A DNA stretch of 64,000 nt from NCBI RefSeq assembly GCF_056746865.1, contig NZ_CM163382.1. One strand, 5' to 3'. The notes under the pieces are model-generated. The model was not told the DNA's origin. It searched no databases and worked only from the letters and a program-made list of their open reading frames with translations. Below, one piece after another: positions 13,366 to 57,323 of this stretch; position 1 is the stretch's first letter, and each line of letters begins with the position of its first letter. Made by a program: the position numbers and the translations under genes.

Positions 13366-14229
13366 ATGATCCGCAGTATGACCGCCTACGCCCGGCGTGA
13401 AATCAAGGGTGAATGGGGGAGCGCAACCTGGGAAATGCGCTCGGTAAACCAGCGTTATCTGGAAACTTACTTTCGTCTGCCGGAGCAGTTCCGTAGCCTT
13501 GAACCTGTCGTTCGCGAGCGTATTCGTTCTCGCCTGACGCGCGGTAAAGTGGAATGTACCCTGCGCTATGAACCAGATGTTAGCGCACAAGGTGAGCTGA
13601 TCCTCAACGAAAAACTGGCTAAACAGCTGGTAACTGCCGCGAACTGGGTAAAAATGCAGAGTGACGAAGGGGAAATCAACCCGGTTGATATTCTCCGCTG
13701 GCCGGGGGTAATGGCAGCCCAGGAGCAGGATCTCGACGCGATTACCGCTGAAATTCTCGCGGCGCTGGATGGTACGCTGGACGACTTTATCGTCGCACGC
13801 GAAACCGAAGGTCAGGCGCTGAAAGCATTGATCGAGCAGCGTCTGGAAGGCGTCACCGCCGAAGTGGTCAAAGTCCGCGCCCATATGCCGGAAATCCTGC
13901 AATGGCAGCGTGAGCGTCTGGTCGCGAAGCTGGAAGATGCTCAGGTGCAACTGGAAAACAACCGTCTGGAGCAGGAGTTGGTTCTGCTGGCACAACGAAT
14001 TGACGTTGCCGAAGAACTGGATCGCCTCGAAGCGCATGTCAAAGAGACCTACAACATTCTGAAGAAAAAAGAAGCGGTTGGTCGTCGTCTGGACTTTATG
14101 ATGCAGGAGTTCAACCGCGAGTCGAACACTCTTGCGTCGAAATCTATCAATGCCGAAGTGACGAATTCTGCCATCGAGCTGAAAGTGTTGATTGAGCAGA
14201 TGCGCGAGCAGATCCAGAATATCGAATAA
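13366..14229 (+). CDS. yicC: YicC-family stress-induced protein
   Basis: 287-aa ORF MIRSMTAYARREIKGEWGSATWEMRSVNQRYLE. Confidence 0.95.
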   Translation: MIRSMTAYARREIKGEWGSATWEMRSVNQRYLETYFRLPEQFRSLEPVVRERIRSRLTRGKVECTLRYEPDVSAQGELILNEKLAKQLVTAANWVKMQSDEGEINPVDILRWPGVMAAQEQDLDAITAEILAALDGTLDDFIVARETEGQALKALIEQRLEGVTAEVVKVRAHMPEILQWQRERLVAKLEDAQVQLENNRLEQELVLLAQRIDVAEELDRLEAHVKETYNILKKKEAVGRRLDFMMQEFNRESNTLASKSINAEVTNSAIELKVLIEQMREQIQNIE

Positions 14230-14336: not shown

Positions 14337-14360
14337 CGTGTACATAGAGGTGTACATAAT
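14337..14360. repeat. left boundary direct repeat of the island (putative attL): cgtgtacatagaggtgtacataat
   Basis: 22 of 24 identical to 35327-35350; flanked by further TGTACA palindromes at 14365-14390. Confidence 0.6.
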
Positions 14361-14417
14361 GACTTTCATGTACATTGCTTTATGTACACACCCATATTCG
14401 ATATTCAGGTATTCGCA

Positions 14418-22481: not shown

Positions 22482-22845
22482 AAATGCAGAAATGGCGCTT
22501 AGCTCCGCAATCGGAGAGCAGGTGGCAAAGATTGCTGGTGCTGTGTGGATTCATAACCTTCATTCTACTGGTGAAGAGAAAATGGCAATTCAGACGCCAG
22601 AGGGACGCACCATTACTACATCTCTGAAGCCGTCAGATGTTTGTGATCTGATTTGCGCATTCATGTACCCAGCAATGAGGACTGTCCACGGCGATAAGTG
22701 GAAACTTGCGACAACCGCTGAATTTGATATGTGGCTAAACAATGATGGCATGCTGACTGATTACGGAATAACCAAGTGGCAGATGCTGGTTAGCCATATC
22801 GCAAACGCTATAGACCACGTGGGGTACGGTGATGCGAAACATTGA
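22474..22845 (+). CDS. hypothetical protein (123 aa)
   Basis: Overlaps neighbours at both ends. Confidence 0.55.
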   Translation: MRENAEMALSSAIGEQVAKIAGAVWIHNLHSTGEEKMAIQTPEGRTITTSLKPSDVCDLICAFMYPAMRTVHGDKWKLATTAEFDMWLNNDGMLTDYGITKWQMLVSHIANAIDHVGYGDAKH

Positions 22846-33887: not shown

Positions 33888-33966
33888 GCCTGATCCTCAC
33901 CCATCGTCACCACCTGCTGGTGTATAAAGGTATTGGCCCAAGCAGCTTTCCAATGGGCACTCATGT

Positions 33967-34422
33967 TTATACGCTGACCTTACAATCAATCACCGCTTTT
34001 AACTTTTCAGCATTGCTTCCCTGACGCTTCCACGCGCTGTAAATATCTTTATCCCACGCTTTACCAGCTTTTGTTTGATAGCCTGCTTCATTGATCCGTT
34101 CAGCTATCACACGCCCATTATCAAATCCCTGTTGGATGGTATCGGCAATGATCTTTATAACTGCCGTTTCGTTATATGGCTTTGGTGGGATGTTCGACTT
34201 TCCGGCAATAAGCGACGCAGCGGCTTTTTCCATGCGCTCCACCAGCCCAAGCATTCGTGAATCAATAGACTTTTCCGGCTGTCCCAGCTTCATGCGAATC
34301 GCATCAACAAGCCAGGAGGTTTTATCCCCTCCAGAAGCGAGAACAGACCGATTAAACTCATCCTGCAATTCAGATGGGATGCGGAACGCGACCAGATTAG
34401 ATTTGCTCATTGCAAAGACCAT
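33967..34422 (-). CDS. hypothetical protein, possible DNA-binding regulator (151 aa)
   Basis: Divergent from the PerC-like gene across the operator array; start may be at MSKSNL. Confidence 0.5.
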   Translation of the reverse strand: MVFAMSKSNLVAFRIPSELQDEFNRSVLASGGDKTSWLVDAIRMKLGQPEKSIDSRMLGLVERMEKAAASLIAGKSNIPPKPYNETAVIKIIADTIQQGFDNGRVIAERINEAGYQTKAGKAWDKDIYSAWKRQGSNAEKLKAVIDCKVSV

Positions 34423-34523
34423 ATCAGTGAGTAATATCCATACAGTATACCACTGTATAACACTGTTATACGCTCAAATATCAGCCAGAAAATAACGAAC
34501 CAATCACAAATCTATCGCTGTGT

Positions 34524-34645
34524 TGTTGGTTCAGAGCTGGGCTGTGTTGGTTCAAAATGAGTTGATGTTGGTTCAATATTTTAGAAAAAACGCAATAAAA
34601 ACAACGATCTTTACAAATTGAACCAACTGAACCAACTGAACCAAC
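34524..34645. promoter_or_regulatory. operator array: three TGTTGGTTCA copies at 21-bp spacing plus three tandem TGAACCAAC copies in inverse orientation
   Basis: tgttggttca at 34524, 34545, 34566; tgaaccaac x3 tandem at 34619-34645; tatataat -10-like box at 34661-34668 before the 34682 start. Confidence 0.55.
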
Positions 34646-34681
34646 ACCTTTTTGCTTATCTATATAATCTGAGAGGCAGAA

Positions 34682-34969
34682 ATGATAAGGGACAGGAAAG
34701 CTGAAGAGCTGGAGTCAAAAGGGCTATACCGGAGAGCTGCCGCACGATGGGCAGAAGTCATGATGCTGGCAGATGGCGATAAAGAACGTGAACATGCAGC
34801 AAACAGACGCTCTGAATGTATCCGTAAGGCGGCACGCCCACCAGCAACTACAGACAAATTCGGAGATTTAAGACAGGCAGTTAAGCGGACTCATTCGGCT
34901 CTTGGTATGGATGAGGAAGCGAGAGGGTACTTCAGGCGTTATCGCGATAAAGATTGCCAGAGACAGTAA
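34682..34969 (+). CDS. PerC-family transcriptional activator-like protein (95 aa)
   Basis: AEELESKGLYRRAAARWAEVM resembles the PerC/Pch family signature; from memory. Confidence 0.55.
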   Translation: MIRDRKAEELESKGLYRRAAARWAEVMMLADGDKEREHAANRRSECIRKAARPPATTDKFGDLRQAVKRTHSALGMDEEARGYFRRYRDKDCQRQ

Positions 34970-35326
34970 TGCTCTATCTGTTTTGGCAAATTACCCCTCA
35001 CTTTGAAGGGATCGGAGCTATAAAAATGGTGTTATCCGGCTTCCTGCATTGCAGGTTTTCGAAAAAATCAATGGGTTAGGTCATCGTGCAAATTTGCACT
35101 CTGCCAGCCAACGCAATTTCTCGTTGGCGAAAATATCAGGTATTTACTGATTCTGCCGCCTCACAAGGATGCGAGAACCTTATAAAACCTAATATCGCAG
35201 AGCTTAATTGTGTACAGCAATTTCACGAGCAATACGCGCGCGCAGGACAACAAGCCTGAACATGGTTACACACCTCGATCGTGAGGGATGTAGGCAATGG
35301 CTTCTGACCAAAGCACCCGAAAAAAC

Positions 35327-35350
35327 CGTGTACATAAGGGTGTACATAAT
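35327..35350. repeat. right boundary direct repeat of the island (putative attR): cgtgtacataagggtgtacataat
   Basis: 22 of 24 identical to 14337-14360. Confidence 0.6.
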
Positions 35351-35580
35351 CAAAAATCGCATTAGGAAGAAACCAGATACAATGCGGCATTGAAGCCAAT
35401 ACTCTACAAACAGATCCAAACTCGTAACGCCAATTCTTCCTTTTCAGCCTTCACAAATGCCGCCCACTCAAACAGAGCGGCATTTTTCCTCCCCGCAACA
35501 TTCAATTCTGTTTTGCGTGCCTGCTCCAGATTTTGCGATGTTTTTTTGCCCAGCGCAGTGAGAACGTGAGATACTTACAA

Positions 35581-35596
35581 CTGTATATAAACACAG
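35581..35596 (+). promoter_or_regulatory. LexA box (CTGTATATAAACACAG) in the dinD promoter
   Basis: Matches the CTGT-N8-ACAG SOS box, about 45 bp upstream of the dinD start. Confidence 0.8.
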
Positions 35597-35641
35597 TTGT
35601 AGACTTACTTTCCTTGCAATCGATATCACATGGAGTGGGCA

Positions 35642-36466
35642 ATGAACGAACATCATCAACCTTTTGAAGAGATAAAGCTGATTAATGCAAACGGAGCAGA
35701 ACAATGGTCAGCAAGACAACTTGGAAAACTACTGGGTTATTCAGAGTATCGTCACTTTATACCTGTATTAACGCGCGCCAAAGAAGCTTGTCTGAATAGT
35801 GGTCACACAATTGATGACCATTTCGAGGAGATCCTCGATATGGTCAAAATTGGCTCAAATGCCAAAAGAGCATTAAAAGACATCGTACTCTCCCGCTATG
35901 CCTGTTACCTGGTAGTACAAAACGGCGACCCTGCGAAACCGGTTATTGCGGCAGGGCAAACTTATTTTGCTATCCAGACCCGACGGCAGGAGCTGGCTGA
36001 CGATGAAGCTTTCAGGCAACTTCGTGAAGACGAAAAGCGTCTTTTTCTGAGAAATGAGTTGAAAGAACATAACAAACAATTAGTTGAGGCAGCGCAGCAA
36101 GCTGGGGTAGCGACAGCTATCGATTTCGCCATATTTCAGAATCATGGTTACCGGGGACTGTATGGTGGATTAGATCAGAAAGCTATCCATCAGCGGAAGG
36201 GGCTGAAAAAGAGTCAGAAGATCCTGGATCATATGGGTTCAACAGAACTGGCGGCTAATCTCTTTCGAGCTACCCAAACAGAAGAAAAACTCAAGCGGGA
36301 TGGCGTGAATTCAAAACAGCAAGCTAACACCACACACTTTGACGTGGGTAGCAAGGTGAGGCAAACCATTCAGGAACTTGGCGGAACCATGCCTGAGGAG
36401 TTGCCGACCTCGCAGGTCAGCATCAAGCAGTTGGAAAACAGTGTAAAAATTACAGAGAAGAAATAG
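35642..36466 (+). CDS. dinD: DNA damage-inducible protein D
   Basis: MNEHHQPFEEIKLINANGAEQWSARQLGKLLGYSEYRHF matches DinD; 274 aa. Confidence 0.93.
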   Translation: MNEHHQPFEEIKLINANGAEQWSARQLGKLLGYSEYRHFIPVLTRAKEACLNSGHTIDDHFEEILDMVKIGSNAKRALKDIVLSRYACYLVVQNGDPAKPVIAAGQTYFAIQTRRQELADDEAFRQLREDEKRLFLRNELKEHNKQLVEAAQQAGVATAIDFAIFQNHGYRGLYGGLDQKAIHQRKGLKKSQKILDHMGSTELAANLFRATQTEEKLKRDGVNSKQQANTTHFDVGSKVRQTIQELGGTMPEELPTSQVSIKQLENSVKITEKK

Positions 36467-55406: not shown

Positions 55407-55501
55407 GGAAGATCGTCGTCTCCGGTGAGGCGGCTGGACTTCAAATCCAGTTGGGGCCGCCAGCGGTCCCGGGCAGGTTCGACTCCTGTGATCTTCCGCC
55501 A
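55407..55501 (+). tRNA. selC: tRNA-Sec (selenocysteine, UCA anticodon)
   Basis: ggaagatcgtcgtctccggtgaggcggctggacttcaaatccagttggggccgccagcggtcccgggcaggttcgactcctgtgatcttccgcca matches selC; 95 nt with long variable arm and 3' CCA. Confidence 0.95.
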
Positions 55502-56138: not shown

Positions 56139-57323
56139 ATGCAAAAAACGGCTACCACTCCATCAAAAATACTTGATCTCACTGCCGCGGCATTTTTACT
56201 TGTCGCCTTTCTGACGGGTATTGCGGGCGCTCTCCAGACTCCTACCCTAAGTATATTCCTCGCAGATGAACTGAAAGCCCGTCCTATAATGGTAGGTTTT
56301 TTCTTCACCGGTAGCGCTATTATGGGAATTCTTGTCAGTCAATTTCTGGCAAGACACTCCGATAAACAAGGCGACCGTAAATTACTGATCCTGCTATGTT
56401 GCTTATTTGGAGTGCTGGCCTGCACGCTTTTTGCGTGGAATCGCAACTACTTCATTCTCCTCTCTACGGGCGTACTTCTGAGTAGTTTTGCTTCCACCGC
56501 AAACCCGCAAATGTTCGCCCTCGCCCGTGAACACGCCGACAGAACAGGCCGTGAGACGGTAATGTTCAGTACATTTTTACGTGCTCAGATCTCGCTTGCC
56601 TGGGTTATCGGGCCACCGCTCGCTTATGAGCTGGCAATGGGATTTAGTTTTAAAGTGATGTATCTCACCGCAGCCATCGCATTTGTTGTTTGCGGGCTGA
56701 TAGTCTGGTTGTTTTTGCCATCAATACAAAGAAATATTCCTGTCGTTACCCAACCCGTAGAAATTTTACCCTCCACCCATAGGAAGCGGGATACACGGCT
56801 ACTTTTCGTGGTTTGTTCAATGATGTGGGCGGCGAATAATCTCTACATGATAAATATGCCGCTATTTATTATTGATGAACTGCATCTAACCGATAAACTG
56901 GCTGGAGAAATGATTGGTATTGCTGCCGGTCTGGAAATTCCGATGATGTTAATCGCAGGCTATTACATGAAACGTATTGGCAAGCGGCTATTAATGCTCA
57001 TTGCTATCGTGAGTGGAATGTGTTTTTACGCCAGCGTACTCATGGCGACGACTCCGGCAGTTGAGCTGGAATTGCAAATTCTAAATGCCATCTTCCTTGG
57101 TATTCTCTGTGGTATCGGCATGCTTTATTTTCAGGACCTGATGCCTGAAAAAATAGGCTCTGCGACAACGTTATATGCAAATACTTCACGCGTCGGCTGG
57201 ATTATCGCCGGCTCTGTTGACGGAATTATGGTTGAAATCTGGAGCTACCACGCGTTGTTCTGGCTGGCGATAGGGATGTTGGGTATTGCGATGATTTGCC
57301 TGCTGTTTATTAAAGATATTTAG
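56139..57323 (+). CDS. setC: sugar efflux transporter (MFS)
   Basis: 394-aa ORF MQKTATTPSKILDLTAAAFLLVAFLTGIAGALQTPTLSIFLADEL. Confidence 0.93.
   Translation: MQKTATTPSKILDLTAAAFLLVAFLTGIAGALQTPTLSIFLADELKARPIMVGFFFTGSAIMGILVSQFLARHSDKQGDRKLLILLCCLFGVLACTLFAWNRNYFILLSTGVLLSSFASTANPQMFALAREHADRTGRETVMFSTFLRAQISLAWVIGPPLAYELAMGFSFKVMYLTAAIAFVVCGLIVWLFLPSIQRNIPVVTQPVEILPSTHRKRDTRLLFVVCSMMWAANNLYMINMPLFIIDELHLTDKLAGEMIGIAAGLEIPMMLIAGYYMKRIGKRLLMLIAIVSGMCFYASVLMATTPAVELELQILNAIFLGILCGIGMLYFQDLMPEKIGSATTLYANTSRVGWIIAGSVDGIMVEIWSYHALFWLAIGMLGIAMICLLFIKDI

Follow-up and report, generated by a model that had tools for sequence, protein, structure and literature searches.

Which protein, if any, would be expected to bind a dense and phased set of short repeats that lies just upstream of a small regulator gene near the right end of a chromosomal island, and what would that binding be for? 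The question is raised by a 64,000-nucleotide stretch of contig NZ_CM163382.1 (RefSeq assembly GCF_056746865.1), referred to here as the window, in which such repeats are found between a 151-aa gene and a PerC-family gene that point away from each other. The original prediction was that they form an operator array to which a repressor encoded by the island itself would bind cooperatively, and which would serve as a genetic switch for the island. We have come to favour another answer, to which we would give a probability of about 70%: that the array is an origin-type iteron module for the replication initiator Rep, representing the distal half of a split origin of a phage-inducible chromosomal island (PICI), which was orphaned by the swap of a Rep cassette and which overlaps the promoter of the PerC gene.

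What does the array consist of?

The description of the repeats themselves has stood up well. There are indeed three copies of GTTGGTTCA at an exact 21-bp spacing (start-to-start 21 + 21), each being the 9-mer core of a longer form, TGTTGGTTCA, that begins at 34524, 34545 and 34566, and these are followed by three tandem reverse-complement copies and by a perfect TATAAT ahead of the PerC-like gene; the flanking genes, too, are the ones that had been given, a 151-aa ORF on the minus strand and a 95-aa PerC-family ORF (Table 1). The two opposed sets enclose a spacer whose A+T content is 79%, against 51% for the whole window, and the copy number of the tandem set is two to three among relatives. 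An exact 9-mer would be expected by chance about 0.5 times per 64 kb (2 x 64000 / 4^9), and GTTGGTTCA has seven exact copies on the two strands of the window, six of them inside 121 bp, so that the PerC-proximal array is real and far beyond chance.

Table 1. Coordinates in the window of the island features discussed here
Feature	Position	Strand	Remarks
attL core, CAGATCCA	14209-14216	no strand	3' end of yicC, left island boundary
Resident primase-helicase (Pri-Rep)	22829-25183	+	N-terminal 344 aa shared with the EcCIMP1/A28 Rep, 76% identity
Rep-adjacent cluster, CCTRTACCA (CCTGTACCA/CCTATACCA)	25214-25316	no strand	6 copies, one inverted, around 71% A+T
Second resident cluster, CCTGTACCA / CCACCTGTA	26323-26421	no strand	1.1 kb from the first cluster
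151-aa gene	33967-34422	-	N-terminus resembles a ribbon-helix-helix motif by eye
Overlapping palindromes, ATACAGT-N5-ACTGTAT; GTATAACA-N1-TGTTATAC	34440-34472	no strand	next to the 151-aa gene
Three spaced iterons, GTTGGTTCA	34525-34533, 34546-34554, 34567-34575	+	21-bp phasing
A+T-rich spacer between the opposed iteron sets	34576-34618	no strand	43 bp, 79% A+T; candidate melting region
Three tandem iterons, reading TGAACCAAC on the + strand	34619-34627, 34628-34636, 34637-34645	-	period 9, facing the spaced set
Presumed PerC promoter, -10 hexamer TATAAT	34663-34668	+	perfect match; 17 bp past the array
Small regulator gene of the PerC family (ANR-like), 95 aa	34682-34969	+	ATG at 34682; phrog_994, E 2.5e-37; RefSeq annotation of identical loci
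attR core, CAGATCCA	35411-35418	no strand	right boundary, ~770 bp beyond the iteron module

The RefSeq annotation has nothing at the array, and a full-text literature search for the repeat sequence returned unrelated primers only. A known RNA was considered and dropped, the Rfam scan of the array having given a single miRNA-hairpin match that fell far short of the threshold, an artefact of the inverted repeats. In the phage collection the module is all but missing, one weak match to a Klebsiella phage having been obtained, and an operator for a helper phage is therefore not supported. Complete E. coli genomes are another matter, since 559 of 5426, about one in ten, carry the module.

Where does it sit?

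The array lies within a 21.2-kb EcCIMP1-like PICI that is integrated into the 3' end of yicC and whose genes include those for an integrase, an AlpA-like protein, AntA/B, an Ash-family protein, the primase-helicase (Rep), P22-type ejection proteins, the 151-aa protein and PerC. The att cores that bound it were defined against the attP of NZ_CP148430.1 (L062), a circular record of 12,152 bp that was deposited as an E. coli plasmid and is a complete excised minimal island, comprising int, the AlpA region, AntA/B, Rep, the 151-aa gene, PerC and both iteron modules; such a record suggests that the element can exist as an episome. EcCIMP1 itself is a PICI of E. coli MP1 whose excision, and transduction by phage Kapi1, have been shown experimentally in a paper that mentions neither origin nor iterons (PMC11773190).

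A location so close to the end of an island (attR is ~770 bp away here, and in some relatives the island stops after ~100-250 bp) might bring to mind arm-type sites for the integrase or excisionase, or a packaging signal. We find this barely credible, however, given that the module occurs together with integrases that are only 29% identical and that use different att sites (yicC versus tRNA-Thr), that identical copies are found beside rep, far from any att site, and that a separate set of repeats, GTGTACATA / ATGTACA, stands beside both att sites (14338-14389 and 35328-35348) and itself looks like integrase arm-type sites.

Elsewhere in the window, a tRNA-Sec gene (selC, 55407-55501) is followed by a 394-aa ORF (56139-57323); the selC region is a classic site of island integration, and a second integrated element is possibly present there.

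How is the PerC promoter arranged?

A strict sigma-70 consensus scan of 33900-35700 returned no complete promoter, and a relaxed scan returned a -10-only promoter for PerC, for which the sole -35 candidate is CCAACA (34641-34646, a 3/6 match), placed inside the last iteron. This iteron covers the -35 position relative to the TATAAT hexamer, and judged from the promoter sequence alone the repeats overlap the core promoter, just as an operator-array model would have it. Any protein bound there should therefore affect PerC, and to this extent the proposal that a dense, phased array of this kind provides sites for a sequence-specific protein holds. In addition, a TATATA(AT) box that stands 13-16 nt past the tandem set is retained in the right-end copies of the module and absent from the rep-adjacent copies described below, which hints at a promoter-linked role. 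The gene downstream is of some consequence in its own right, as the EcCIMP1 homologue of this PerC-family regulator silences LEE1 expression (PMC11773190). PerC itself was considered as the binder and is an unlikely one, in that it resembles ANR-type small regulators and that a PerC-like gene occurs without the module in L057.

Nature has also supplied a deletion variant of this region, flanked by microhomology, in L008:9860-9900 (IMG/VR contig 2563366968_000004), in which everything from the third spaced iteron through part of the PerC -10 is missing, A+T spacer and tandem array included, and only two iterons remain.

Does a neighbouring repressor bind it?

On the face of it, the idea of an operator array, bound cooperatively by the 151-aa or the AlpA-like protein and acting as a divergent-promoter switch between the 151-aa gene and PerC, has several points in its favour. 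The array separates two divergent genes, its last repeat overlaps the PerC -35, a 21-bp phasing would suit a protein that binds cooperatively along one side of the helix, and the N-terminus of the 151-aa protein, for which Pfam, NCBIfam and PHROGs hold no informative domain, reads like a ribbon-helix-helix, a class of protein that binds repeat arrays. The distribution of the genes nonetheless makes it a very improbable explanation, because neither candidate repressor co-occurs or co-varies with the module. Homologues of the 151-aa protein that are 58-79% identical are found in islands with other iteron types, with no module adjoining them, and they form part of the many loci at which a 151-aa homologue occurs without the module; conversely, the module is present without the 151-aa gene in L055, L056 and L061, and islands of the EcCIMP1 type have the module at PerC and no 151-aa homologue at all. 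The AlpA-like proteins of two module-sharing islands are only 36% identical, and the module also occurs 3' of rep, where there is no promoter for it to control. Binding by either protein is thus not supported, nor is the genetic switch, the evidence favouring a replication-initiator site that also overlaps a promoter.

Next to every 151-aa homologue it is another element that has been conserved. A second set of repeats near the start of the 151-aa gene had been described, and such a set is present, but it lies at 34440-34472 and not at 34455-34490, and it consists of two overlapping inverted repeats instead of plain direct ones. An alternative way of writing these palindromes is GTATAAC-N3-GTTATAC plus ACAGT-N5-ACTGT. 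They share sequence with an extended -10 of the minus strand, TGgTATACT, and the element is at least 90% conserved in 28 distinct regions upstream of 151-aa homologues (proteins 58-99% identical), the flanks of which are not conserved. It is probably the promoter and autoregulatory operator of the 151-aa gene. A LexA box within these palindromes was looked for and rejected, there being no CTGT-N8-ACAG.

Two further observations concern the same end of the islands. A canonical LexA box, CTGTATATAAACACAG, sits at 35581-35596, upstream of dinD and just beyond attR, and was called as a hairpin by the terminator scan. In several islands, moreover, triplets of GGTATCCA(C) with a spacing of 12-15 bp (L055:13534-13569, L021:2454-2489 and L012:3123-3158) adjoin a small HTH gene or the 151-aa gene near the right end; their resemblance to a DnaA box is a loose one only.

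Where else does the same module occur?

In seven loci (A28 (L001), L002, L009, L056, L057, EcCIMP1 (L061) and L062) the module is found within ~25-40 bp of the rep stop codon, where three tandem copies of GTTGGTTCA are followed by an A+T-rich spacer, which includes a shared ‘ctttacaaat’, and by three spaced inverted copies. All of these but L057, that is six of the seven, also have a second copy near the right end, located upstream of PerC where PerC exists and, in EcCIMP1, upstream of the PerC-like EcCIMP1_025; there are also right-end copies with no PerC downstream, in L021 and L034. Within one and the same element the distal copy is inverted in orientation relative to the origin cluster, and two separated clusters of the same iteron occur in L001, L002, L009, L015, L024, L029, L056, L061 and L062. 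We would read the module directly 3' of rep and the one near the right end upstream of PerC in the EcCIMP1-like islands as the two halves of a single, split origin.

Origins of PICIs and of SaPIs have been defined by an A+T-rich region flanked on either side by two or more iterons, the two sets running in opposite directions, and by a position immediately 3' of rep (PMC6092414, PMC9371898). The array in the window has the first of these features, with 3 + 3 exact 9-mers, and departs from the second, being 9.3 kb from the rep stop (25183). The repeats, rather than the DNA around them, are what has been maintained: between the window and the EcCIMP1-type PerC modules, 54 of 54 iteron positions are identical as opposed to 38 of 67 other positions (Fisher p = 1.7e-9), and although the positions between the spaced iterons agree at only 9 of 24, the 21-bp phasing is retained.

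How the second copies are distributed is also informative. A remote second module is present in 9 of 11 islands in which the rep-adjacent module is a single one of four to six iterons, its neighbour gene being variously PerC, an AlpA-like gene or a secreted-protein gene, and in none of the six islands in which the rep-adjacent origin is a double, inverted pair of 10-12 iterons (hypergeometric p ~0.002, uncorrected for the relatedness of the compared loci, which means that the counts overstate independence). This suggests that the origin is made up of two modules, which may be contiguous or split by cargo, as in the ori and crr of P4. Islands with other iteron types yielded no distal second module, so that the distal copy is not a general requirement.

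Relatives with the double-module origin (L010, L030, L037 and others; for example, L010:7567-8640) carry a PerC-like gene ~0.5 kb downstream of that origin, and these PerC-like genes are 45-49% identical. The order ‘origin then PerC’ may be ancestral and may have been split later by the ejection-protein cargo.

Might the distal copy not be a positive half of an origin at all? Iteron plasmids use distal iteron arrays for copy control and incompatibility, and an array such as incA of P1 or incC of F could serve as a model, in which the module, by titrating or handcuffing Rep, would keep replication in check or shut out sibling islands. An additional cluster at a distance from rep, within the element that also carries the origin and in inverted orientation, would fit well enough. 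Such arrays normally lack opposed sets around an A+T-rich region, however, which are present here, and the complementary distribution with respect to double-module origins suggests a second origin module instead, for which reasons we rate control of copy number or incompatibility as an unlikely function and continue to regard the array as the distal half of a split origin.

Which protein is expected to bind it?

Among the relatives, the iteron sequence changes in step with the last ~90 aa of Rep, whereas the helicase body of Rep, the 151-aa protein, AlpA, the integrase and PerC show no such correspondence. Two loci make the point particularly well. The Rep of L028 is 88-93% identical in its helicase body to the Reps of the GTTGGTTCA type and only 52-54% identical in the last 90 aa, and its iteron is ACGGGTTA; the Rep of L038, with 64-65% identity in the helicase body and 69-71% in the last 90 aa, is found with GTTGGTTCA itself. 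Two further Rep C-terminal types pair with TGAGACAAC and TGGGATAA. The siblings, then, fit the rule that an iteron is matched to the C-terminus of its own Rep, as seen from this covariation, and the window departs from it.

The DUF927-type Rep of the siblings is homologous to a SaPI ‘pathogenicity island protein’ of solved structure (8TCH, E 2.5e-10) and to Cch helicases, and by analogy to the SaPI Rep its C-terminal domain may be a winged helix. Prediction with AlphaFold of the C-terminal 150 aa was of low confidence (pLDDT 41 with a 6-sequence alignment and 56 with a 41-sequence alignment), and a Foldseek search of these low-confidence models against the PDB gave no match with E < 1. Taking the covariation and the homology together, we consider the C-terminal domain of the DUF927-type Rep to be the most likely binder of the GTTGGTTCA iterons. 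With the last iteron on the PerC -35, one would expect the cognate Rep, if it were in the cell, to change how PerC is transcribed or to fire or handcuff the site.

Why would the module be an orphan?

The Rep that the window island actually encodes is a mosaic. Residues 1-344, the part shared with the EcCIMP1/A28 Rep, correspond to the zinc-finger and TOPRIM primase part, whereas the C-terminal 440 aa are unrelated to the DUF927 Rep, are assigned to DUF5906 by RefSeq and give a weak match to the P4-family primase C-terminal model. This Rep has iterons of its own, of the pattern CCTRTACCA, and the cluster beside it, which is identical in pattern in five other islands with a DUF5906 Rep, is presumed to be its cognate origin. 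These resident repeats form two clusters, as a P4-like bipartite origin would, on either side of an ORF at 25580-26317, whereas GTTGGTTCA forms a single cluster only in the window.

Both resident clusters fall in a block of ~2.65 kb (about 23.86-26.5 kb) that is found only in islands of the DUF5906 type, and matches to other islands resume at ~26,515, from which it appears that the swapped block consists of the C-terminal half of Rep plus both resident iteron clusters. Recombination would thus have replaced the helicase and origin-binding half of Rep, along with the adjacent iterons, by a DUF5906, P4-alpha-like cassette with CCTRTACCA iterons; the specificity half of Rep was apparently swapped together with its iterons and one half of the old origin left behind. 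With the C-terminus of Rep exchanged, the GTTGGTTCA module near PerC is apparently a non-cognate orphan, and as long as a cognate Rep is missing from the cell it would amount to mere DNA upstream of a -10-only promoter. All six islands with the DUF5906 cassette retain the GTTGGTTCA module upstream of PerC, with the spaced copies intact in five of the six, two to three tandem copies and a deletion in one island. In three such genomes an 11-kb query containing the module has only one matching place, which suggests that they hold no cognate origin elsewhere.

Why should six islands keep a module for which they have the wrong Rep? One explanation would be that it never depended on Rep, and that it is a regulatory module of PerC bound by a host factor or by a protein that the islands share (e.g. 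the Ash-family protein, AntA/B or a 143-aa protein), the rep-adjacent copies then being targets of the same regulator. The retention itself would be accounted for in this way, as would the confinement of the TATATA(AT) box to right-end copies, and several small proteins common to the window and the EcCIMP1-type islands are at hand as candidates. Against this, the iteron changes with the Rep C-terminus among Reps that are otherwise very similar, PICI/SaPI origins that have been defined by experiment show this architecture and this position beside rep, and the right-end copies of L021 and L034 have no PerC to regulate; we are accordingly doubtful of a Rep-independent regulator. The retention could reflect either a Rep-independent function or too little time for decay, the latter being a possible explanation because the islands are 97-99% identical, and it is a point against the reading of the module as an orphaned origin half.

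Why does it matter?

An orphaned half-origin need not be a silent one, and a bolder extension of our preferred reading is that the PerC-proximal module is a half-origin that can be activated in trans, and at the same time a Rep-responsive promoter, to be fired or handcuffed by the Rep of a co-resident PICI of the EcCIMP1 type. We would call this speculative, with the odds clearly against it. If it were true, it would mean cross-talk or parasitism between satellites with different Reps, expression of a LEE-silencing PerC-family regulator would be coupled to PICI induction and, in the excised circle, read-through across attP into int could change. If, on the other hand, the module is inert here, what we have described is an ordinary scar of recombination in a familiar kind of element.

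The module has so far been read as plain intergenic DNA, and recognising its repeats as iterons would locate the origin or origins of a widespread and experimentally mobilisable family of PICIs. In addition, a replication-initiator site placed on a PerC-family promoter would connect the induction of satellites with the regulation of virulence in a way that can be tested. Elements of this kind are known; a distal copy that overlaps a promoter, and its orphan state, are, as far as could be found, undescribed for PICIs.

How does it compare with known systems?

Arrays of operators for ribbon-helix-helix proteins of the omega type likewise have short direct and inverted repeats that overlap a promoter, but this is a resemblance only, since the module does not co-occur with a gene for a candidate repressor and the 151-aa gene has a different conserved palindrome. 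EcCIMP1 is much closer. It has AntA/B, Ash, DUF4222, ejection-protein and PerC-family genes in common with the window island, and the module stands both at its rep and upstream of EcCIMP1_025; it differs in its tRNA-Thr site, in an integrase of 29% identity, in having the cognate DUF927 Rep and in being without the 151-aa gene.

With the origins of PICIs and SaPIs at large, the window copy has in common the opposed sets of iterons around an A+T-rich region, and the sibling modules share the position directly 3' of rep as well. Those origins are bound by a winged-helix domain at the C-terminus of Rep, and in the siblings the DUF927 Rep is homologous to SaPI Rep/Cch and the iteron type tracks the Rep C-terminus. 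Unlike them, the window copy is far from rep, upstream of PerC and overlapping a promoter, its iterons are 9-mers as opposed to 5-6-mers, and the resident Rep of the window comes from another helicase family and has other iterons.

The satellite P4 provides the remaining comparison. Its ori and crr reportedly consist of two separated clusters of type I iterons, both bound by the C-terminal domain of the alpha protein. The siblings, too, have two clusters of one iteron several kb apart in a small satellite replicon, with a multifunctional primase-helicase-initiator encoded beside one of them, and the DUF5906 Rep of the window is itself weakly P4-family and has its two clusters 1.1 kb apart. The iterons bear no sequence relationship to those of P4, however, and the DUF927 Rep of the siblings is MCM- and SaPI-Rep-like and not P4 alpha-like. 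In its arrangement, all the same, the distal module is reminiscent of crr, and it may be required in cis for replication.
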